The notes below the pieces were generated by a model that saw nothing but the letters and a program-made list of their open reading frames with translations, ran no database searches and was not told the DNA's origin. Position numbers and translations under genes: made by a program. Source: Candidatus Saccharimonadales bacterium (GTDB lineage Bacteria; Patescibacteriota; Saccharimonadia; Saccharimonadales; EFPC-124). From it: a stretch of DNA of 64,000 nt. Shown here in pieces: positions 2,959 to 59,584 of the stretch (within the stretch, counting starts at the first letter, position 1; every line of letters starts with the position of its first letter). The stretch spans positions 141,827 through 205,826 of the forward strand of contig JBOHNX010000001.1 of the NCBI GenBank assembly GCA_050730875.1, written 5' to 3'.

Positions 2959-3873
2959 ATGTTCTGGCGAAAACAAAAAGAACCCGTTCGACAGCCACGG
3001 CTTATGGCCGGGCAAGATGATTACGTGTTTCGACGGAGCCGGACGCTAACGGGCAGCGTGTCGTCGCAGGTTACTGCAACGGCAGAAAAGCGCGGGCAAC
3101 TGAAGACCGACCGGTTAAAGTTGCACGAGCTAAAGGCGCATCGCCGGCATGTGCTGCGGCTGCTCGGCGTGGTTTTGCTGGCCTTGGGCGTGATGGTGTT
3201 TTTGCTTGCGAATTTTATTGTTTCACCACAGATTGCCAGTGCAGAACCAGGCGTTCGCCAGGCTGATGCTTCGAAGTACCACCAAGCTATTTACACGTAT
3301 TTTGGTGATCATCCGCTGGAGCGTTTTGGGTTTGCACTGAATGCCGAAGAGTTTCAGGAGCATCTTAAGCAGTCGCACGATGAGGTGCGTAGCGTAACGG
3401 TTGAGCGTGATTGGTATGGTGGTGACGTGCGTTTTATTTTGTATTTTCGGCAGCCGCTTTTGGTGTGGCGGAGTGCGGGCCAGCAGTTTTATGTAGATAA
3501 TCAGGGTGTTGCGTTTGACTACAATCATTTTGTTGAGCCGACGGTGGCGGTGGAGGACCAGTCCGGTATTACACCGGATCAAGCTTCGGGGGCAGTGGCG
3601 TCTACCCGATTCCTTGGTTTTTTGGGGCGTACGGTGGGTGCGATTAACTCCTATAACAAGGGTAAGGTCGTTGCGGTTATTATTCCGCGGTCGACTCGGC
3701 AAATTGATATTAAACTGGAGGGTCGCGATTATATTATTAAGACGCATATCGACCGCGATCCCCTGCAACAGGCTGAAGATATTGCTAATGCACTCAAGTA
3801 CTTCGATGTGCATGGTATTAAGCCGCAGTATGTTGATGTGCGGGTGGCGCACAAGGCGTTTTATAAGAATTAA
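2959..3873 (+). CDS. ftsQ: FtsQ/DivIB-like cell-division protein (single TM + POTRA-like domain)
   Basis: ORF 2917..3873; the Met at 2959 (MFWRKQ) is the more likely start. It has a TM helix (LLGVVLLALGVMVFLLANF) followed by a POTRA-like segment (VRSVTVERDWYGGDVRFILYFRQPLLVW...YVDNQGVAF). It lies after murG. Confidence 0.7.
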   Translation: MFWRKQKEPVRQPRLMAGQDDYVFRRSRTLTGSVSSQVTATAEKRGQLKTDRLKLHELKAHRRHVLRLLGVVLLALGVMVFLLANFIVSPQIASAEPGVRQADASKYHQAIYTYFGDHPLERFGFALNAEEFQEHLKQSHDEVRSVTVERDWYGGDVRFILYFRQPLLVWRSAGQQFYVDNQGVAFDYNHFVEPTVAVEDQSGITPDQASGAVASTRFLGFLGRTVGAINSYNKGKVVAVIIPRSTRQIDIKLEGRDYIIKTHIDRDPLQQAEDIANALKYFDVHGIKPQYVDVRVAHKAFYKN

Positions 3874-3888
3874 GCGGATGACCCGACC

Positions 3889-4023
3889 GCTGCTTTTCGT
3901 ACTATTCCTTCACAGAGCAAATGTGCCCGCTCTTCCTTAACCAACTGAAAGCCCTGAACTACAGGGTTTCAGTTGGTTACTCCAGAGCTACGATCCTCTG
4001 TGAAGGAATAGTACGAGCGCAGC
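3889..4023. repeat. 135-nt nested inverted repeat (rod-like hairpin)
   Basis: 3898-3917 is perfectly complementary to 3996-4015 (20 bp). The helix is extended by 3889-3893/4019-4023. An inner helix pairs 3929-3933 with 3984-3988. The innermost helix pairs 3938-3956 with 3962-3979 (18 bp, one bulge, 5-nt loop). Confidence 0.85.
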
Positions 4024-4305
4024 ATATCCTGGGGTATGCGGAAGAGGGTAGGGCGGAGGAGCTTTACTTACTAGGAGTCGCAAAGCTAAAAAGCCTACGG
4101 CATCACCCGCTCGATGGATAACTTATTGCTTGTGTTGATTAGCGGCAGAAGCAGACTACTCCGCTGCTCTCTTTTATGTTCTAATTTTGTTCTTGCTTTA
4201 AGTTATAGACCCACTCCAATATCGAAAAAACTATATAAAAATATTAAATTCAAAAAAAGCAAATAGTGTAGGGCGGAGGGTGGTAGGGAGTCGTGAAAAA
4301 ATATT

Positions 4306-4527
4306 ATGAAAATACAAAAAAGCAAATTTGCAAATGCGACTGTGGAAAAGTCAAATTACGACATGGCACGTTTTATGGGGTGCTGCCAGTCGGCTGGCGA
4401 CCTAAGCCGGTCGACAGTACAATACAAGTTTAAATGTAGCGGTGCGCGTAGTGTAATTACAGCCACATTAACGCCAAACTCCCGGAAAACTCCCCTAGTA
4501 AGACGATGTACCAATCATCTTCAGTAA
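4306..4527 (+). CDS. hypothetical small protein (very uncertain; alternative 46-codon GTG frame at 4293..4433)
   Basis: This is the only ORF of at least 60 aa in the 955-bp gap. GGAGG/GGGAG motifs lie upstream (4276-4290). A perfect 11-bp hairpin (4532-4542/4559-4569) follows the stop. No recognisable family. Confidence 0.2.
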   Translation: MKIQKSKFANATVEKSNYDMARFMGCCQSAGDLSRSTVQYKFKCSGARSVITATLTPNSRKTPLVRRCTNHLQ

Positions 4528-4828
4528 AATAATGTAATGTCGTAAAAGATATATTGTGCGACATTACATCTATATTAAACTATGTACACTTTCATCCATC
4601 TTCAGCCACCAATTTTCTTGTGTTTCGTCTATGATTTTTATGGCTCCTCATTCTTCTACTCGCCCGGGCTGCGTTCTCGCTTTAAACGAGTCATTATGGT
4701 TGTTTGATTACTTTATGTAGATTCATTTTGACTGCTAAACCAATTAACAGGGGTCGACCTCTATTATCGAGTATTCGATAGATTGTGTTCGTATTTTGTT
4801 CGTTTTATTTCTGTATGATTATTACTCC

Positions 4829-7525
4829 CTAGCGTAAGCGAAGTACAAAGTCGTTGTCTTGTTGCTCTTGTTGGGGCTGCGGCTGTTGCTGTTGTGGAGT
4901 GGGGTTTTGAGTCTTAGAACCGCCTCGTTTGCGTCCGCGCGAACGGGAACGCTTGCCGCTACCTGGCGTTGCTTGCTGGCCTGATTGTTGCTGTGGAGCG
5001 GCTGGTGCGGGCTGTGGGGGCTTTTGCGTTTGAGCGGCGGGCGCTGTTGTGGGTTGTTTTGATGGTGGCTGTGTCTGTGGGGCAGTAAATCGACCAGACG
5101 CGGCGGGGATGAGAGTTTGTTTAATCACCTTCTGAATTTCGGCCTCAACTTCTGCCCGAGGTCGCGAGTAATGGCGACGTGTGTTTTCGATAATCTGCGG
5201 CGAGTAGTCATTTTGCGCGGCTGGGAGGGTTAGGGTGGTTGCAGAGAACGCCGGTGCCTTCTCTCCCCTAATGACCATGCTAATGACAAAATGTCGGTTG
5301 TGCATTTGCATGAGGTCAGCGGCTTCAAACTGCGGTTCGAACTGCTTAGAAAGCAGTGGCGCATCGTCGGGGCTGACCCGGAAGGAAATGACAGTACCAA
5401 CGTTCCCGAATACGGCATCGCGTACGGTATCGTTCATCTGTGAAATATATTGGTTGGCTACAGTTAGGTTAAGGCCGTATTTACGTGCCTCACTTAAGAT
5501 AGTTGCAAACGAATCGGTCGCGAAGTTTTGGAATTCGTCCACGTACAGGTAGAACGGCTTGCGATCTTCGATGTGCGGAATATCAGAACGGCTCATGGCG
5601 GCCAGCTGGATTTTGGTTACTAGGAACGAGCCCAGCACGGCGGCGTTGTCTTCCCCTACTAACCCTTTGCTCAGGTTCACGATCAAAATTTTGCCTTCGT
5701 CCATGATTTTACGGATGTTAAAAGTGCTTTTTGGCTGGCCAATGATGTTACGGATGATTGGATTAGCAGTAAAGGCACCCACCTTGTTAAGCACTGGGGC
5801 AATGGCTTCGGCAGCGAATTTATCGTTCCAGCTCGCAAATTCTACCGTCCAGAACTGGCGCACTACGGCGTCATCGACATATGTTAGGACCTCGTTGCGG
5901 AACTTTTTATCGGTGAGCATGCGGGTGATATCGAGTAGTGTTGTGTTTGGATAATCCAAAAGCGCTAAGATTGTGTAGCGCAAGATGTATTCCAAACGTG
6001 GCCCCCAACTTTCGCCGAACATGCGTTTTAGGACACCAATAATTTCAGAACTAATATTGTTCTTCATGGCTGGATTGATGACTTCCATCGGGTTGAAGCC
6101 AATCGGGTATGCTGTGTCTGCTGGGTTAAAGTAGATCACATCCTTGGCGCGCGACTGAGGGATAAACCGCAGGTTGTTAATGGCAAAGTCGCCATGTGGA
6201 TCGATAATGGCGAAACCGTGGTTATGGAAGACGTCGCTGAGTGCAAACAGCTCCAACAGACCAGATTTACCAGTACCGGTTTGGCCAATGATATACACGT
6301 GACGGCCGCGGTCTGAACGGTACAGGCCAAATTGCTGGTTAATCCCGCGGAAGTTCGTTAGACCGAACGCACTTATTTCGGCATCGGCCTCGACACCGAT
6401 GACAACTGGCAGTTTTGCAGGTGGTTCGGCTGTTTTTGAGCTTGCCCAGACGATGTTCGGTGTCTCCACGTTGGTGTGTGGTAAGTGGAAGACACTGGCG
6501 AGCTCTTCGATATTTAAAATGTAGCCGCGATCAATAAAGAACCGCGCACGATATTGCGCCAGGCCGTCGGGCGAGAACGAAGAGTTCTTCATCTGGAAGC
6601 CATTCAGGTTCGTACTGTTGAACTGTTTGAACGTACCAACAATCGCTTGCATGCGCAGTCGGGCGGTTTGTTGGCTGTTACCCAAATACGTCAGCCGTAT
6701 TTTTACTTGGTAGCCTAATTTAATGCTCTTCTTCTCTACTTCGGTGATCCGGCCTTTTTCGCGTTCGCTAATTTCTGCCGGGCCACTGCTGCCTTGATTT
6801 TCTGGTGGTTTCCAGAGAGCTTCAAGCGCACGCAGCAAATAATAGCCAAGACCACCGCCGAGGGCAGCACTACTGCTCCCTCCCCCACTCTTCGCACGGG
6901 CTGTGTAGCGACTGGCTTTGCGGTGCCAGTCATCCGAAATTGGGCGCGCCAATACCTGAATCCACATTTCTTCGCCGGTTTCTTCGAGTTTGGCTAGTGT
7001 AGCGGTCACGGCTGCTAAGGGGTCAACCTCGAAGCTCTGGAATGTTTTAATCGGTAGCACTTCGTTATCGATTAATGAAAGTTCAGCGGTATGCACAACC
7101 TGCTGTTTGATATCGCGAGCTGCGTAATCTTCTTCTGCAACATGAATCTGCACAGTTGGATATTGCGCGTAAATTTGGCCTTCAACAAAGTTTTGCAGGT
7201 ATGTCGGCACCCATACGTAAAAGCGTATGCGTTTGTCGATGGCGGCGATTTCAAAGCTGATGTGTTCCTGCAAGCCGCCCTGCGTGGCAAGCTCACGCTT
7301 CGAGCGCAAAATACCGTGCAAACTGGCGAACATTTGCTCGGCTGCCAGTTCTTGCTTCTCGTTTGTACGAGGGATCTCGAGGATTAATAGGGTGTGGTCA
7401 AGATCACGAACCACCTTAGCTCGACGGTTGTTCCGAAGGGCTAAGTAACCAAGGACTGCGGCGATTGGCAGCCAGATGTACCACTTGCTCAGCAAGCCGA
7501 AAATCAACGAGAGCACCACGTCCAT
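4829..7525 (-). CDS. membrane-anchored VirD4/TraG/TraD-like (FtsK-HerA superfamily) ATPase with P/Q-rich C-terminal tail
   Basis: 898 aa. N-terminal TM helix. Walker A YIIGQTGTGKSG. Walker B-like FYLYVDEFQNF. Coupling-protein-like LNLTVANQYISQ. The last ~110 aa are low-complexity P/Q/G/R. Confidence 0.75.
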   Translation of the reverse strand: MDVVLSLIFGLLSKWYIWLPIAAVLGYLALRNNRRAKVVRDLDHTLLILEIPRTNEKQELAAEQMFASLHGILRSKRELATQGGLQEHISFEIAAIDKRIRFYVWVPTYLQNFVEGQIYAQYPTVQIHVAEEDYAARDIKQQVVHTAELSLIDNEVLPIKTFQSFEVDPLAAVTATLAKLEETGEEMWIQVLARPISDDWHRKASRYTARAKSGGGSSSAALGGGLGYYLLRALEALWKPPENQGSSGPAEISEREKGRITEVEKKSIKLGYQVKIRLTYLGNSQQTARLRMQAIVGTFKQFNSTNLNGFQMKNSSFSPDGLAQYRARFFIDRGYILNIEELASVFHLPHTNVETPNIVWASSKTAEPPAKLPVVIGVEADAEISAFGLTNFRGINQQFGLYRSDRGRHVYIIGQTGTGKSGLLELFALSDVFHNHGFAIIDPHGDFAINNLRFIPQSRAKDVIYFNPADTAYPIGFNPMEVINPAMKNNISSEIIGVLKRMFGESWGPRLEYILRYTILALLDYPNTTLLDITRMLTDKKFRNEVLTYVDDAVVRQFWTVEFASWNDKFAAEAIAPVLNKVGAFTANPIIRNIIGQPKSTFNIRKIMDEGKILIVNLSKGLVGEDNAAVLGSFLVTKIQLAAMSRSDIPHIEDRKPFYLYVDEFQNFATDSFATILSEARKYGLNLTVANQYISQMNDTVRDAVFGNVGTVISFRVSPDDAPLLSKQFEPQFEAADLMQMHNRHFVISMVIRGEKAPAFSATTLTLPAAQNDYSPQIIENTRRHYSRPRAEVEAEIQKVIKQTLIPAASGRFTAPQTQPPSKQPTTAPAAQTQKPPQPAPAAPQQQSGQQATPGSGKRSRSRGRKRGGSKTQNPTPQQQQPQPQQEQQDNDFVLRLR

Positions 7526-7597: not shown

Positions 7598-8647
7598 CTA
7601 TTCTTTGTCTTCTTCTGCCAGTGCATATGTCGCCTTAGCCACCCGCTTAAAGCGCTGTTTGCCCTGGAGGTTGAGCAAGATAGTCGTTTCTTTCACCTGA
7701 CGGTGCTTGAGGACTCGACGAACAATTTCATCACGGTGCAATGGACCACCCTCTTTTTTGAGGATGTCGGTAATGATGTCGGCAACGGTACCCTTCTTAA
7801 AGCCCCAATCCTTGAGTGCGTAAATACCACGGCCAATCAACACAAAACGGCTGTCTTTAATGAGCTCGTTGTGAATAGCCTGGGTTGTAACATCTTTACG
7901 GCGGAAATCAGACTCTTTAATTGACTTCGCGATGTCGCTAAAGTGCATTGGTTTACCGTTTTCTTGTAGGACAACAAAAATTTTGTCGCGGATGTTTTTA
8001 GGGTTAACGGTTGGCCATTTAGTCAGACCCCAGTGGTCCTTAAGGTTGGCAAGCTCTTTGCTAACCTGTGCGAGCGCGCGGACGTGCGACGGGTGGTCGT
8101 GGTCAAGTTTTTGGTGCAGCTGCTCGATTGTCAGCGGTTCACCTTCTTTTTTGATGGTGCCGACAATGCTATCGACGTGCTTCTTGATTTGTGGTTCGTC
8201 GTGATATTCCTTAATGCCTACCGAGTGGTGGTAGCGGTCGCTTTCCTCGACGACAGTTAGGCGCGGTGCTAGTTCGGCAACAAATGCCACGTGAGCACGG
8301 TCGCGCTCGCTTGGCGCTTTGGCGATACGGGCTGCAAGGTCAGATACTTTGGCAACACGGCCAAGGTCATGCAAGTGACGGATAAGGTGTTTTTCGAGAG
8401 TGGTAATGTGTGGCAAGCTCTCTTCCGCGGCCAGTTTTAGGCGGATCATAATTGCCTTTTCCAGCTGGCGCACACGTTCGCGAGTAATACCAAGAAGCTC
8501 ACCAATTTGCTCGAGTGTTTCTTTGCGGTCGTACAAACCAAAACGACGCGCAATGATTTCGCGCTCTCGCTCTCGTTCTACTGTAATAAGGATATCCTTA
8601 ACAGCTGACTGTAAATCCACCGTCGCCGCTTCAGCGGTATCGCTCAT
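7598..8647 (-). CDS. sigma-70 region-4-like HTH protein fused to two HARE-HTH-like domains
   Basis: The segment REIIARRFGLYDRKETLEQIGELLGITRERVRQLEKAIMIRLK resembles sigma70 region 4. Two C-terminal modules end in DSRFVLIGRGIYALKDWG and QRFKRVAKATYALAEE, like the RpoE-delta HARE-HTH. The Met at 8647 has a GGAAAGG RBS (the ORF track starts at 8689). Confidence 0.6.
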   Translation of the reverse strand: MSDTAEAATVDLQSAVKDILITVEREREREIIARRFGLYDRKETLEQIGELLGITRERVRQLEKAIMIRLKLAAEESLPHITTLEKHLIRHLHDLGRVAKVSDLAARIAKAPSERDRAHVAFVAELAPRLTVVEESDRYHHSVGIKEYHDEPQIKKHVDSIVGTIKKEGEPLTIEQLHQKLDHDHPSHVRALAQVSKELANLKDHWGLTKWPTVNPKNIRDKIFVVLQENGKPMHFSDIAKSIKESDFRRKDVTTQAIHNELIKDSRFVLIGRGIYALKDWGFKKGTVADIITDILKKEGGPLHRDEIVRRVLKHRQVKETTILLNLQGKQRFKRVAKATYALAEEDKE

Positions 8648-8841
8648 ATAACTAACCTTTCCGGGGTTATTTTTTGCCTCAATGTTCATATTACTCTAAC
8701 ACAAATTACTATTGGTGTCAAATAACGAGGGTATAAGTTAATTATAGCATCAACTCGACGTTTTAGGTAGTCTCTGATGTGACAGTTTATAACTGTGGAT
8801 AAATAGTATAAGCGTAAGAGGTATGTAGGAAAATTATATAG

Positions 8842-9253
8842 AAAACGGGCTCTCGCGGTTGCAAGAGCCCTTATGGAGGGATGGCACCGGCCTAGGAAAC
8901 GCAGGCGGGCTCGGTCTCCCGAGGTGCGTACATCTAGGCCGGTGCCTGGCGTCGGCTGCAGTCTCCCTCAAGCCTGCCGACGCCGCGGTTCTCGTCGTCC
9001 CAATGGGCCCGAACATGACGAGAACCAGTGAGGCTGCCCATGAGTCCCCCCAGGCCCCAAGACAACCTCACGAAAGGACCACGCCGCAACGCTCGGGGGT
9101 GCAGCTGCGGCGTGGTCCAGCCTTTAGCCCACCGTAGCGCGCCGCGTCCCTGGGGAGGCCGTGCCTTCCGGATGAAGGTACGTCGCGTACGCTACGGTGG
9201 GGGCTTGTATCATTCGGCTGATTGCAGCCGAACAAGTTCACTATTAAGGTGTA
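8842..9253. ncRNA. unassigned GC-rich highly structured element (candidate ncRNA, strand unresolved)
   Basis: Seven or more long helices: 8883-8895/8934-8946, 8948-8956/8976-8984, 8987-8998/9015-9026, 9028-9033/9066-9071, 9076-9087/9107-9118, 9128-9139/9190-9201 and 9161-9168/9174-9181. A possible pseudoknot pairs 9048-9054 with 9149-9155. Two G.U pairs favour the + strand. A promoter (TTGATG-17-TATTAT, 9260-9288) and a terminator hairpin with U run (8847-8870) favour the - strand. No credible ORF. Confidence 0.55.
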
Positions 9254-9301
9254 CTATAAATAATAACTTAGTTTAGTAATTTCATCAACAGACCACCTCT
9301 G

Positions 9302-11602
9302 TTATTTGCGGGTGCGACGAGAACGAGCACTCTTGGCTGGCGCTTTGGCGAGGAGTTCTTTGCATTGCGCTAATGTGAGTTGCGCTGGTTCGATGTCTTT
9401 TGGCACTTTGACATTCTTTTTGCCATCGGTGATGTAAGGACCAAAGCGGCCGTTGAGGACTCTAATCCCCTCTTCACTGAAGTCGTGGATGGTCATTTTG
9501 GCACGTTTTTCGGCGTCTTCGGCTAAGAGCTGTTTAGCGGTTGCAAGGTCTATGGTCAGAGGGTCGTGCCCCTTAATTGAGACGTAACGTTTAGCGACGC
9601 GAACGTATGGTCCGAAACGACCAATGTTAGCCTCGATTTCTTCGTTGTTGTCGGTCAGGCCAACGACTCGGGGCAATTTAAGCAATTCGAGTGCTTGTTC
9701 GAGCGTAATTGTGTCGAGTGAGATTTCGGGCGGAATGGTAGCGAAGGTTGGTTTTTCTTCCTCCTCAGCTTCCCCTACCTGTACCATGGGGCCGTAGCGG
9801 CCAAAGCGGGCAGATACTTTACGACCGGTTTTGGGATCGGTACCAAGGGTTCGAGATTGCATAGCCTCGGCACGACTGACGCCTTCAGACTTTTCGACTG
9901 TTTTATGGAATGGGTCGTAGAATTCTTTAAGCATTTGCTGCCACGCTAGTTTGCCATCGGCGATGCCATCGAACTCTTCTTCGACTGTTGCGGTGAAGTC
10001 GTAGTCGATGATGTGTGGGAAGTGCAGTACCAAGAAGTCGGTTACGACTTTGCCGATGTCGGTGGGTACTAACTTGCCCTTATCGGTAGGAATTGGCTCC
10101 ATGGCCTGCTTGCGCTCAACTGCGCTAGCAGCTAGTGACAGGCGCACCACTTCCCGCTCGCCGCCAACGACGTCGGCTTTTTCAACATAGCCGCGATCTT
10201 GGATGGTGCTGATAGTTGGCGCGTAGGTACTTGGACGTCCAATGCCGAGTTCTTCGAGTTTGCGTACCAGGCTAGCTTCGGTGTAACGTGCGGGTGCCCT
10301 GGCGTAGGTCTGTTCGGCTTCGGCACTAACCAAATTGAGTTTGTCGCCGGTTTTTACCTCTGGCAATAAGCCTTCTTCTTTGGCTTCTTTACCTTCGGCA
10401 TAGACTTTTAAGAAACCGGGGAATTCGACAATCTCGCCCTTGGCTTCCAGCACGTCTTTGCTTTCGCTTAGGCCAATGGTGATAGTAGTTTTTTCGATCT
10501 TGGCTGGCGCCATTTGCGATGCGACGCTGCGCTTCCAAATAAGTTCGTAGAGTTTTTGTTGCTGGGCGTCATCGCCGGCTTGGCGGACGCTGGCGTTAGT
10601 GGGGCGAATAGCTTCGTGAGCTTCTTGGGCGCCGGCACTTTTGGTCGTGAATTTTCGGGTTTGCAGGTAGTTTTCGCCATACTCTTTTTTAATGAGCTCG
10701 GCCATAGCGCCAATTGCCAGGCTGCTGAGGTTAACCGAGTCGGTACGCATGTAGGTGATGTGACCATTTTCGTACAAGCGCTGTGCGAGCATCATAGTTT
10801 GCTTTGGTGAAAAACCAAGTCGGCGCGATGCTTCTTGTTGCAGTGTGCTGGTGGTAAACGGTGCGCTTGGGCTGCGCGTACCAGGCGTTTTTTCAACGTT
10901 GGCGATGCTGCATTCGCTCTTAACAAGTGCTTCGAGGAATGCCTGAGCTTCTGCCTCGCTTTCGTATTTAACCGGTGCCTCTGCTTTCAATTCCGTGCCG
11001 TCTTCAAGTGTCAGAAGTGCATTTACTTTAAAGCTGGTCTTGGCTTCGAAACCTTCAATCTCGCGTTCGCGCTCAACAATTAAACGCACTGCCACAGATT
11101 GCACACGGCCAGCGCTTAAACCTGTGCGGACTTTTTTCCAGAGGACCGGGCTCAGTTCGTACCCCACAATGCGGTCTAAAATACGACGCGCTTGTTGCGC
11201 GTCTACTAATTTAAGGTCAATGCTGCGAGGATTCTTTACCGCCGCTTCGATTGCCGGTTTGGTAATTTCATGAAAGACAATGCGCTTTGTGTTTTCGGGT
11301 TTGAGCTTCAGCGCTTCGCTTAAATGCCAAGCAATTGCTTCCCCTTCGCGGTCTTCATCGCTTGCGAGCCAGATGATATCGGCAGTTTTAGCTGCAGCGC
11401 GCAGTTCGGCAACCGTTTTCTTTTTATCTGGGCTTACTTCGTACTTTGGTTCGAAATTATTGGCGATATCAACGCTCATCCCCTTTTTAGGAAGGTCGCG
11501 GATGTGCCCAAAGCTGCTTTTAACGACAAAATCCTTGCCTAAATACTTGGCAATGGTTTTGGCTTTGGCCGGTGACTCTACAATGACTAGGTTCTTGCTC
11601 AT
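9302..11602 (-). CDS. topA: DNA topoisomerase I
   Basis: Toprim start MSKNLVIVESPAKAKTI...GHIRDLP. Also has SDEDREGEAI, a catalytic-region YITYMRTDS motif, and a C-terminal repeated RFGPY module. The likely start is 11602 (the ORF track starts at 11656). Confidence 0.95.
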   Translation of the reverse strand: MSKNLVIVESPAKAKTIAKYLGKDFVVKSSFGHIRDLPKKGMSVDIANNFEPKYEVSPDKKKTVAELRAAAKTADIIWLASDEDREGEAIAWHLSEALKLKPENTKRIVFHEITKPAIEAAVKNPRSIDLKLVDAQQARRILDRIVGYELSPVLWKKVRTGLSAGRVQSVAVRLIVEREREIEGFEAKTSFKVNALLTLEDGTELKAEAPVKYESEAEAQAFLEALVKSECSIANVEKTPGTRSPSAPFTTSTLQQEASRRLGFSPKQTMMLAQRLYENGHITYMRTDSVNLSSLAIGAMAELIKKEYGENYLQTRKFTTKSAGAQEAHEAIRPTNASVRQAGDDAQQQKLYELIWKRSVASQMAPAKIEKTTITIGLSESKDVLEAKGEIVEFPGFLKVYAEGKEAKEEGLLPEVKTGDKLNLVSAEAEQTYARAPARYTEASLVRKLEELGIGRPSTYAPTISTIQDRGYVEKADVVGGEREVVRLSLAASAVERKQAMEPIPTDKGKLVPTDIGKVVTDFLVLHFPHIIDYDFTATVEEEFDGIADGKLAWQQMLKEFYDPFHKTVEKSEGVSRAEAMQSRTLGTDPKTGRKVSARFGRYGPMVQVGEAEEEEKPTFATIPPEISLDTITLEQALELLKLPRVVGLTDNNEEIEANIGRFGPYVRVAKRYVSIKGHDPLTIDLATAKQLLAEDAEKRAKMTIHDFSEEGIRVLNGRFGPYITDGKKNVKVPKDIEPAQLTLAQCKELLAKAPAKSARSRRTRK

Positions 11603-11698
11603 GCTTGTTCGTTGGTTTCGATGCCTTATGGTACTGACTGTTCTATAAGAATGCAAGTAAGTTTTTATGAAAACTGTAAGATATTAGCGACATAGGTC

Positions 11699-17098: not shown

Positions 17099-18043
17099 CT
17101 AGCTTGCCGGTGCGGGCGGAGTTGGGCTTGGTCCAGTTGGCGGTGTTGGCGGCACTGGGCGCGGTGGGACTGGCGGGAGAGGCCGAGGCGCAGGTGGTGG
17201 TGCCGGACTTTGTTGTGCTTGCGGTGGCGCACCTGGCGGCGTTGATGGTTTACTTACATTACCCTGCTGATCAATGGCAATGGTTGGTGCCGGACCACCT
17301 TGCTTAAGGGTATCCAGCTGGTTTTGCACGGCTGCCTTTTCCTCTGCAGTTGTAGCAACTTGTGGTTTTGGCGCGTTAGGGTCGTTACCTCCCTCTTTTG
17401 CCATTTCGCGGTCGAGCAGTTCGTTAATGTCTACTTGCTTAGTTGGGTCGCTAATAGGTTGAATGACGCGTTGCCGTGTTGACGGTGCAGCGGGTGCGCT
17501 AGAACGCACAGGAGGCATGCCGTGTGCGGGCATTGCCGGTTGTTGTGGCGCAGTTGCAGCGCTTGCCGGCGGCGGTTGCGGTCGAGGTGGCGCGTTTGGT
17601 GCTGGCGGAGGTGGAGGTGGAGACATGGGTGGCGCTTGTGCTGGTGGCGCGCTTGGGCTAGCTTTGACACCTGGCGAGTCCCCTAGCACTTCGTGCACGA
17701 CACGCACAACATCTTCAATGCCAACCTGTGATTTAACTAAGTAACGGTCGGCTCCCATTTGTTCGCCGCGCATGCGCTGATCTTCTGAACTGAGAGCGGT
17801 CATAACTATGACCTTTATAGTCCTAGTCTCGGTAGTCGAACGCAAGATATCTAACATGTCAAAACCACTGATCTTTGGCATCATAACATCAGTAATAATA
17901 AGCGCCGGGCGCTCTTTAATGGCGATTGCGAGCGCTTCTTCGCCATCACCTGCCGATACGATGTCGTACCCTTCGGCTAAAAGCCGTACGCCGTAAATTT
18001 CGCGTAGGCTCTTGTCATCTTCAACAAGCATTATCTTGGTCAT
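17099..18043 (-). CDS. response regulator: receiver domain + ~190-aa proline-rich tail, no recognisable output domain
   Basis: Receiver sequence MTKIMLVEDDKSL...IITDVMMPKISGFD...VMTAL. An AGGAGG RBS precedes the ATG at 18043. The remainder is P/A/Q-rich low complexity. Confidence 0.8.
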   Translation of the reverse strand: MTKIMLVEDDKSLREIYGVRLLAEGYDIVSAGDGEEALAIAIKERPALIITDVMMPKISGFDMLDILRSTTETRTIKVIVMTALSSEDQRMRGEQMGADRYLVKSQVGIEDVVRVVHEVLGDSPGVKASPSAPPAQAPPMSPPPPPPAPNAPPRPQPPPASAATAPQQPAMPAHGMPPVRSSAPAAPSTRQRVIQPISDPTKQVDINELLDREMAKEGGNDPNAPKPQVATTAEEKAAVQNQLDTLKQGGPAPTIAIDQQGNVSKPSTPPGAPPQAQQSPAPPPAPRPLPPVPPRPVPPTPPTGPSPTPPAPAS

Positions 18044-18079
18044 ATTGCCTCCTATTGTACGGGGTGTGGTCAAAAAAAT

Positions 18080-27560: not shown

Positions 27561-27635
27561 TGGTGACCCTATGGGGAATCGAACCCCAGTTACCAGGATG
27601 AGAACCTGGCGTCCTAACCGCTAGACGATAGGGCC
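27561..27635 (-). tRNA. tRNA-Glu (anticodon CUC), CCA encoded
   Basis: 75-nt cloverleaf GGCCCUA/UAGGGUC. Anticodon loop UUCUCAU. T-arm UGGGGUUCGAUUCCCCA. A terminator hairpin lies at about 27528-27545 on the - strand. Confidence 0.92.
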
Positions 27636-37118: not shown

Positions 37119-37205
37119 GCCGCGGTGGCGGAATTGGTAGACGCGCTAGACTCAAAATCTGGTGAGCATCTGCTCGTGCCGGTTCAAGTCCGGCCCGCGG
37201 TACCA
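37119..37205 (+). tRNA. tRNA-Leu (anticodon CAA), long variable arm, CCA encoded
   Basis: GCCGCGGUGGCGGAAUUGGUAGACGC D-arm. Anticodon loop CUCAAAA. T-arm CCGGUUCAAGUCCGG. Confidence 0.92.
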
Positions 37206-59471: not shown

Positions 59472-59512
59472 CGCCAAGTTACTCACCCCTTCGATCGAAT
59501 CTGACGACAACG

Positions 59513-59584
59513 TCGGGCTGGCCGGATTTGAACCGACACCCTTCCCATCCCAAACGGGAGGCTCCACCGTTGAGCTACAGCCCG
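59513..59584 (-). tRNA. tRNA-Pro (anticodon UGG), CCA not encoded
   Basis: CGGGCUG acceptor stem, GCUCAACGGUGGAGC D-arm, anticodon loop UUUGGGA and T-arm GUCGGUUCAAAUCCGGC. Confidence 0.9.

Follow-up and report, generated by a model that had tools for sequence, protein, structure and literature searches.

What is the GC-rich interval that separates topA, the topoisomerase I gene, from its downstream neighbor in a Candidatus Saccharimonadales genome? The interval, positions 8842-9253 of the stretch analyzed here (64,000 nucleotides (nt) of contig JBOHNX010000001.1, hereafter the window), had been described in a first-pass annotation as a large structured non-coding RNA (ncRNA) of no recognizable class, a description now supported by negative results from Rfam, ARAGORN and motif searches. 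From its fold, its transcription signals and its counterparts in related genomes, we conclude that the tract is probably a genuine, transcribed gene for a structured ncRNA, belonging to a family of elements that occupy the same slot between topA and a gene for a sigma-like protein.

The tract is set apart by both composition and structure. Its GC content reaches 0.67-0.68 in 200-nt windows over 8900-9199, compared with 0.39-0.45 in the immediate flanks and 0.508 in the window as a whole (67-68% for 8842-9253 against ~50% for the genome), in agreement with the earlier remark that it is far more GC-rich than its surroundings. Within it lies a dense series of inverted repeats: a perfect 13-bp repeat at 8883-8895/8934-8946, a second of 13 bp at 9076-9088/9106-9118, one of 12 bp at 9128-9139/9190-9201, one of 10 perfect bp at 8987-8996/9017-9026 and one of 9 bp at 8948-8956/8976-8984. 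All the helices first listed for the tract are real, but two lengths required correction, as the helix at 9076 comprises 13 rather than 12 bp and that at 8987 is perfect over 10 bp, extending to 12 bp only by way of a plus-strand G-T pair. Folding of the minus strand gives a minimum free energy (MFE) of -234.3 kcal/mol and a z-score of -9.5, with none of 100 dinucleotide shuffles folding as well; the corresponding values for the plus strand are -215.6 kcal/mol and -7.5. Across runs, z ranged from -8.8 to -9.5 for the sense (minus) strand and from -5.4 to -7.5 for the antisense strand.

Two loop complements could add longer-range contacts to this fold, namely CCCCAGG at 9048-9054 with CCTGGGG at 9149-9155, and TCCCTC at 8964-8969 with GAGGGA at 8876-8881. 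Both had been proposed as loop-to-distal pairings and both complements are present, but one segment (given as 8874-8880) had been placed one base off and neither pairing is individually significant, since 8 of 500 loop shuffles yielded pairings of at least 7 bp. Only the 6-bp pairing joins two segments that are unpaired in the MFE fold. Read as RNA, UCCCUC (8881-8876) in the 3' tail and GAGGGA (8969-8964) in the loop of hairpin H6 (Table 1) constitute a candidate pseudoknot that is not statistically compelling.

On which strand would such an RNA be made? The minus strand, the direction of topA, is favored because a promoter and a terminator lie there, the fold is more stable and G·U pairs are more numerous. 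A promoter scan identified a sigma-70-like site that begins 14 nt past the topA stop codon and consists of TTGATG (9288-9283), a 17-nt spacer and TATTAT (9265-9260), from which transcription would be predicted to start at ~9250-9253. A terminator scan identified an intrinsic terminator at 8870-8840, with a 10-bp stem containing 7 G-C pairs, a 4-nt loop and the run GUUUUCU, located ~190 nt ahead of the sigma-like gene. Both scans recovered the minus-strand signals seen in the first-pass annotation (promoter 9260-9288, terminator 8847-8870), and the two signals share one strand and frame the folded region exactly. In stability the minus-strand fold exceeds the plus-strand fold by 19-22 kcal/mol, and it contains 16 G·U pairs compared with 10. 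Two G·U pairs that form only in a plus-strand transcript, previously offered as a hint in the opposite direction, do exist but are outweighed by the minus-strand fold and signals. The predicted primary transcript is ~415 nt long and would run from ~9253 to ~8838.

To place this predicted RNA among known families, Rfam 15 (4227 families) was searched on both strands, at gathering thresholds over the window and at E<=10 over 8700-9400 (701 nt). At gathering thresholds the tract gave no match, the sole Rfam or ARAGORN matches in the 64 kb being three tRNA genes elsewhere: Glu-CTC at 27561-27635 (minus), Leu-CAA at 37119-37205 (plus) and Pro-TGG at 59512-59584 (minus). At E<=10 the tract returned noise, with a best score of 19 bits against a cutoff of 104 bits. 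The first-pass annotation had allowed that a full Rfam scan might assign the tract to a known family; on both strands it yielded no significant match. Models of RNase P RNA (RF00010, RF00011 and relatives) left the tract unmatched at either setting, as did those of signal recognition particle (SRP) RNA and 6S RNA, and the fold consists of seven separate hairpins, not one rod. OLE, GOLLD, ROOL, HEARO, raiA and all other Rfam 15 families likewise failed to match the element or 13 orthologous loci, in which nothing appeared at E<=0.1. The RNase P strings CR-I (GAGGAAAGUCC-like), CR-V (ACAGAA..CGGCUUA) and CR-IV are missing from both strands of the tract with 1-3 mismatches allowed, the T-loop motif of transfer-messenger RNA (tmRNA) is missing even with mismatches, an explicit motif search for SRP RNA was equally negative, and ARAGORN detected no tmRNA in the window or in three orthologous loci (L082, L083 and L086), all of which bears out the earlier failure to find RNase P, tmRNA or SRP features by eye. 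Features of TIGR- or CRISPR-type guide arrays were also missing, with no direct repeats or direct-repeat families in 8800-9300 and with topA and a sigma-like helix-turn-helix protein as neighbors. A dispersed palindrome of the REP/BIME type found no support, as the 64-kb window holds no second copy of the element or of any of its arms beyond chance 10-13-mers.

These results bear directly on the idea that the tract is a universal RNA (RNase P RNA, tmRNA, SRP RNA or 6S RNA) so extremely diverged that the models miss it. Its size, GC richness and possible pseudoknots are within range of such RNAs, and genomes of the Candidate Phyla Radiation (CPR) are known for odd RNAs. A universal RNA would nonetheless be expected to keep invariant cores, and sequences at this locus cannot be aligned between close relatives, range in length from 0.4 to 1.3 kb, are duplicated in tandem and are gone from many genomes; together with the lack of any Rfam or ARAGORN match and of the CR-I, CR-IV, CR-V and T-loop motifs, this largely refutes the idea, which we now consider scarcely credible. 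The likeness to RNase P RNA and tmRNA that was first perceived in the tract holds for size and is confined to it.

Coding capacity was assessed in the same way. Open reading frames (ORFs) of 51-92 amino acids (aa) occur in several frames of the tract, as expected at its GC content, and the earlier judgment that none is credible is upheld by tblastx against orthologous elements (nothing better than E 0.02) and by the 92-aa ORF, for which a search of 5.8 billion proteins returned no relative, even at E<=10. The presence of these ORFs, a GC content like that of Actinobacteria and the acceptance of foreign genes by the slot in relatives could suggest that GC-rich DNA was acquired horizontally, perhaps from an actinobacterial host, and that the tract is what is left of a decayed gene. 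We regard this origin as very unlikely, as the longest of these frames has no homologue, tblastx gave no signal, plasmid and phage collections did not match the tract, and a decayed gene would not give a z-score of -9.5, back-to-back perfect hairpins and a promoter-terminator frame.

By the relatives of its topA and sigma-like genes, the window belongs to Candidatus Saccharimonadales (CPR). The surroundings of the element are core chromosome and not an island, with mraY (a fragment), ftsW and murG on one side of the element and, in minus-strand order, a pseudouridine synthase gene, der, pth, dprA, topA, the element, the sigma-like 349-aa gene and a gene resembling a type IV secretion system coupling protein (T4CP). 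A second, independent assembly (Logan SRR27067773) is 100% identical over 8.9 kb, element included. Orthologous loci were gathered by scanning metagenomes with the sigma-like protein and through exact-protein look-ups, and among them the order dprA, topA, slot, sigma-like gene, T4CP gene is kept. Of the fetched loci, all those with a sigma-like protein of at least 80% identity to that of the window, apart from L082, carry on the topA strand an ORF-less, GC-rich element 0.4-1.3 kb long (L083-L089, L091 and L167-L177). At a greater distance, the nearest topA proteins in one-genome-per-species GTDB contigs are 55-61% identical, and the corresponding loci, which are too distant for the comparison, show no GC island or similarity to the element.

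The transcription signals recur along with the position. An intrinsic terminator ends the element on the topA strand in all three relatives that were scanned (L167, L170 and L086), and the distance from terminator to next gene in the family is ~150-190 nt. In most loci, visual inspection reveals a promoter-like pair just past the topA stop codon, with a -35 hexamer of TTGCAT, TTGCTT, TTGTTT or TTGACT, a spacer of 16-17 nt and a TA-rich hexamer. The promoter scan called a site in this position in L086 alone, with a different -35 hexamer, and no good pair is readable by eye in L172. With these elements the tract in the window shares position and strand, a promoter-like site and a terminator, a GC content above that of the genome, and foldability biased toward the sense strand.

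Might the element instead be a cis-acting part of an mRNA, either a topA 3' untranslated region or terminator-insulator, or a leader or attenuator of the sigma-like gene? It is co-directional with both genes and lies directly between them, and read-through from topA, which has no separate terminator ahead of the element, would cover it. On the other hand, the element has a promoter-like site of its own after the topA stop codon, as do most relatives in the form of a comparable hexamer pair, and it terminates well before the sigma-like gene, whose own promoter region persists in relatives without the element. Many relatives lack the element altogether, and in one locus (L175) tandem units each carry their own promoter and terminator. 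A cis-acting role is one that we judge unlikely.

Foldability on the sense strand is a further property that the family retains. Eleven elements were tested, and all but L172, which is weaker at -4.4, have sense-strand z-scores between -9 and -19; the values of the ten relatives span -4.4 to -18.9. The sense z-score is the stronger in 11 of 11 elements and the sense MFE is the lower in 9 of 11. The first-pass annotation had held that a lack of both conservation and transcription in relatives would argue against a functional RNA; on the side of conservation, what is kept is the locus, the strand, the foldability and, in the three relatives scanned, the terminator, but the sequence is not conserved.

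This pattern can be set against a second possibility, that the element is transcribed but functionless or selfish, a drifting GC-rich insert in an insertion-tolerant slot whose hairpins persist for mutational reasons. Elsewhere the slot is empty or is taken up by a pilin-like gene or by an orphan ORF of 430 aa, primary sequence is not conserved, and many lineages no longer have the element, all of which such an insert would explain. Neutral drift, however, would erase the helices, which are strong in nearly all the elements and show frequent compensatory changes, and a GC content 10-15 points above that of the genome speaks against mutational equilibrium. A functionless insert is, in our estimation, about as improbable as a cis-acting part.

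Evidence that pairing itself is under selection comes from relatives in which several copies can be aligned. Five distinct sequences of ~650 nt each (L083, L086, L087, L088 and L091) form an alignable subfamily, for which RNAalifold returned 125 consensus pairs, 50 of them with compensatory double changes; the doubly changed pairs include the long-range helix GGGGGA...UCCCCC that closes the subfamily core. The ratio of G·U to A·C cells is 75:23 in the sense direction and 40:36 when the reverse complement is folded, and the consensus energy is -141 kcal/mol sense compared with -126 kcal/mol antisense, a strand asymmetry that fits an RNA and not a DNA cruciform. Separately, this subfamily (L083-L088 and L091; for example L086 4100-4830) contains the strongly conserved motifs GAGGGGUACAUA, GACACGCCUCCGU, CGGUCACCGUCGAAG and CAGGGGAUGU, as well as a candidate pseudoknot GAGGGGU/ACCCCUC that covaries in L083 (GAGAGGU/ACCUCUC).

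A second view is provided by paralogues. Locus L175 (1-1540; also L176 and L177, all BAND20 soil metagenome scaffolds) is built of two or more tandem units, which have separate promoters and an identical terminator, GAGCCTATGGGCTCTTTTT, and a module of two hairpins is present there in four copies, 67-82% identical where BLAST could align them. Among these paralogous modules, pairing is kept in 96% of cells and double changes affect 9 of the 21 pairs, with none of 500 shuffles as good, and the ratio of G·U to A·C is 9:0 in the sense direction and 0:3 antisense. Two units are also present in L089 (1508-3000).

The same data weigh on a purely DNA-level explanation, in which the tract is a cluster of palindromes that form cruciforms beside topA and affect supercoiling, replication or recombination, or that arise by template-switch mutation, in either case without an RNA function. 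The mostly perfect stems of 9-13 bp, the ability of both strands to fold far better than shuffles, the adjacency to the topoisomerase I gene, and the rapid turnover of content with tandem duplication would all suit such a cluster. It would not be expected to produce the strand-specific excess of G·U pairs seen both in the subfamily and in the L175 paralogues, nor a sense MFE below the antisense MFE in most elements, nor a structure bracketed by a promoter and a terminator on one strand, with terminators on the topA strand in all the relatives scanned. We consider a DNA-level origin improbable.

How firmly the copy in the window belongs to this family is a separate question. Alignment of RNAs of the family succeeds only between loci with 90-95% identity in the sigma-like protein, and between L170 and L171 (93%) the similarity is discernible by eye only. 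For the window, identity of the sigma-like protein to any other in the collections searched does not exceed 85%; because the family changes fast, the missing sequence similarity of the window's element is what would be expected. One part of the element does find a possible relative. A covariance model built from three paralogous L175 modules (R2) scores 8948-8984 at 18.5 bits, with a rough E-value of 0.0027-0.015 depending on search size, the best match outside L175 in ~1.28 Mb on both strands, and the next-best match outside L175 (14.1 bits) falls inside the RNA element of L171. Membership of the window's element in the family is probable and rests on its slot and strand, its promoter-terminator frame, its foldability and this one short hairpin.

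Several observations weigh against the view that the tract is a functional RNA gene of this family, and they should be read together. Local alignment (Smith-Waterman, calibrated by shuffling) gave z<1 against eight orthologous elements, leaving the window's element with no alignable homologue, and when the element was compared with the orthologous slots by blastn, nhmmer and tblastx the sole signal was the conserved promoter region of the downstream gene. Its homology to the other elements amounts to position, organization and a single 37-nt hairpin with a rough E-value. A further candidate match, between H6 and the "CCUGAGGGGU" hairpin of the alignable subfamily (model R1), looked similar by eye and was rejected at 10.9 bits, E=1 and rank 5. 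The element is dispensable over evolution, as the slot is only an AT-rich gap of 170-300 nt in ~25 of the 55 metagenome loci in which both flanking genes were located, and in more distant relatives it is filled by protein genes. Correction of quasi-palindromes at the DNA level could also yield mostly perfect stems like those observed here. Two points concern the mode of action in particular: GGA motifs occur at about the chance rate in the window's RNA (hand count), and an excess of unpaired C-runs may reflect the ability of G to pair with both C and U.

In more distant Saccharimonadales the slot is filled by a type IV pilin-like gene (N-terminus KGFTIVELLIVIVVIGILAA), at 1954-2748 in L126 and also in L129, L132, L135 and L149. 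In L082, whose sigma-like protein is 85% identical and which is among the closest relatives, it holds an orphan 430-aa ORF without a Pfam match (3538-4830). The slot is tolerant of varied insertions.

If the tract is an RNA gene of the topA-slot family, how might it work? A sigma-70-type promoter just past the topA stop codon would drive an independent minus-strand gene (~9253-8838), whose transcript would fold into seven consecutive GC-rich hairpin domains, possibly joined by the two G-rich/C-rich loop pairings, and would stop at the intrinsic terminator ~190 nt before the next gene. The tract would be the local member of a family of large structured RNAs confined to one clade, a group of soil Saccharimonadales of the CPR, in which the family occupies the slot between topA and the sigma-70 region 4/HARE-HTH gene. 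Selection on this family would keep base pairing on the transcribed strand and hardly any primary sequence, and hairpin modules as well as whole units would duplicate in tandem, so that orthologues become unalignable below ~90% identity of the flanking protein. The retention of helices rather than sequence, combined with the duplication of modules, points away from a ribozyme or riboswitch core, and we infer that the RNA is not a catalytic housekeeping RNA. It may instead act in trans as a stable, compactly folded particle, possibly as a protein-binding scaffold or sponge, or alternatively as a regulator that uses exposed C-rich loops and an anti-Shine-Dalgarno-like CCUCC 3' tail. No partner gene is evident among the surrounding genes of the window. 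A CsrB-like sponge was considered and rejected, given unenriched GGA (hand count) and a bias toward CCUCC and C-run loops that is weak and confounded. A scaffold or regulator mechanism specifically is a proposal that we put forward as doubtful.

The wider claim deserves somewhat more confidence. On balance we lean, by a small degree, toward the view that a clade of soil Saccharimonadales encodes an undescribed class of 0.4-1.3 kb hyper-structured RNAs beside topA, of which the 415-nt RNA of the window would be one divergent member, and in which near-neutral sequence turnover with pairing kept is combined with tandem duplication and repeated loss or replacement. Such a pattern fits diversifying or arms-race pressure (host interaction, defense or a decoy) or a pure structural scaffold, and does not fit a conventional ribozyme or riboswitch. 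The parts of the predicted RNA and its neighbors are collected in Table 1.

Table 1. Parts of the predicted RNA and its neighboring genes, with positions in the window.
Feature	Position	Strand	Basis
Promoter, sigma-70-like	9260..9288	-	Promoter scan
Predicted primary transcript, ~415 nt: seven GC-rich hairpin domains and a terminator hairpin	8838..9253	-	Fold, GC profile, no Rfam match
Hairpin H1, CUUGUUCGGCUG-CAAU-CAGCCGAAUGAUACAAG; 5' hairpin, lower GC than the other hairpins	9204..9236	-	Folds
Domain H2: 12-bp closing helix 9190-9201/9128-9139 around two small hairpins; CCCCAGG at 9155-9149	9128..9201	-	Inverted repeat, folds
Hairpin H3: 13-bp perfect stem; C5 run in loop (GCACCCCCGAGCG); palindromic CAGCUG	9076..9118	-	Inverted repeat, fold
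Hairpin H4, GUGAGGUUGUC...GGCAGCCUCAC; CCUGGGG (9054-9048) in apical part	9028..9071	-	Fold, sequence
Hairpin H5: 10-bp perfect stem; palindrome GGGCCC in loop	8987..9026	-	Inverted repeat, fold
Hairpin H6, GGCGUCGGC...GCCGACGCC, loop UUGAGGGAGACU; sole part with a candidate relative elsewhere	8948..8984	-	Inverted repeat, covariance model R2
Domain H7: 13-bp perfect closing helix; inner hairpin with GAGA (GNRA-type) tetraloop	8883..8946	-	Inverted repeat, fold
C-rich tail AUCCCUCCAUAA, unpaired in MFE fold	8871..8882	-	Sequence, fold
Intrinsic terminator: 10-bp stem 8847-8856/8861-8870, 4-nt loop, then GUUUUCUAUA	8840..8870	-	Terminator scan
topA (Toprim, Topoisom_bac, three Toprim_C_rpt repeats), upstream neighbor	9302..11656	-	Pfam, synteny
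349-aa protein, sigma-70 region 4 and HARE-HTH, downstream neighbor	7598..8647	-	Pfam; NCBI protein P0001 100% identical

The downstream gene and its upstream region carry several features of their own. The longest ORF of the sigma-like gene encodes 363 aa (start at 8689); in the identical NCBI protein, as in all relatives, the start lies 14 codons further on, at 8647, which makes the intergenic region 42 nt longer than the ORF list implies. Upstream of this gene (8690-8800 in the window, minus strand, and in orthologous loci) lie two conserved promoter-like sites, TGCTATAAT and TTGACAC-17-TAGAGT/TACAGT, both of which are kept even in relatives without the RNA element. A perfect DnaA box, TTATCCACA, is located at 8794-8802 (minus strand), ~150 nt upstream of the gene and within a ~130-nt block conserved in the clade, and a DnaA box is also found upstream of the sigma-like gene in L086, L087, L089, L168, L170, L171 and L175. 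The box at 8794-8802 looks like a regulatory box rather than an origin of replication, and an origin at this site was rejected on the grounds that it is the single perfect box in the window and that no switch in GC skew is present. A second GC-rich spot, at 17.1-17.65 kb, was tried as a sister element and dismissed as unrelated, as it lies inside a low-complexity ORF of 324 aa (17099-18073, minus strand) with G/C-rich codons and a GC content of up to 0.69.

Full-text literature searches turned up no account of large, clade-specific ncRNAs from CPR/Patescibacteria, and nothing relevant on an ncRNA at the topA locus of Saccharibacteria or Patescibacteria. In the tiny genomes of the CPR, 0.4-1.3 kb of non-coding, GC-enriched, highly structured and apparently transcribed DNA is costly, and the element is therefore unlikely to be idle. 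If the reading is true, a new class would join the short list of large bacterial ncRNAs, and it would do so with an atypical evolutionary signature of conserved structure, unconstrained sequence and duplicating modules. Pipelines based on covariance models or alignment are by design blind to such a pattern, so more RNAs of this kind may hide in metagenomes. The conserved slot is a simple handle with which to collect hundreds of examples and to test which features, such as helix number, loop composition and the 3' C-rich tail, are conserved, and it also opens the way to tests of the RNA's binding partners in cultivated Saccharibacteria or by heterologous expression.

Comparison with known systems helps to define what the tract is. 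REP/BIME clusters and TIGR- or CRISPR-like arrays resemble it in being intergenic, hairpin-forming clusters downstream of a gene. They are built from a repeated consensus unit or direct repeats, whereas each hairpin of the tract is unique and has no copies in the 64 kb, and the tract, unlike TIGR and CRISPR arrays, has no Tas or Cas gene nearby. TIGR arrays comprise tandem direct repeats with interspersed spacers and an adjacent effector gene (PMC12045711). RNase P RNA and tmRNA share with the tract a length of ~350-420 nt, a high GC content in a moderate-GC genome and possible long-range pairings, but the tract fails every defining test that was run for them and its evolutionary behavior is the opposite of theirs.

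The large, ornate bacterial RNAs OLE, GOLLD, ROOL, raiA and HEARO offer a closer comparison in kind. Like the tract, they span several hundred nt with many helices and a GC content above that of the genome, they are free-standing, lineage-restricted and non-coding units, as the RNA predicted here would be, and they too were noticed as long GC-rich intergenic regions. These RNAs have conserved sequence cores and are found by Rfam models, in contrast to the unmatched topA-slot family, which displays almost no sequence conservation between species, a threefold range of lengths and tandem duplication at a fixed slot.

In terms of mechanism, RNAIII of Staphylococcus aureus and the CsrB/RsmX-Y-Z RNAs are chains of independent hairpins with motif-bearing or C-rich loops, fast evolution, a variable number of modules and tandem copies. 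The RNA of the window would resemble them in its hairpin chain, its CCUCC tail and C5 loops and, through L175, the duplication of modules. It differs from them in having no repeated loop motif and GGA at about the chance rate (hand count), in the lack of a CsrA, Hfq or agr context among its neighbors, and in its longer, GC-richer stems. By analogy, RNAIII and CsrB/Rsm may be the closest mechanistic parallels, with the RNA of the window a member of neither group. The tract is probably best viewed as a large, structured ncRNA of a kind already familiar from bacteria, with an unusual mode of evolution and in a phylum essentially unexplored for such RNAs.

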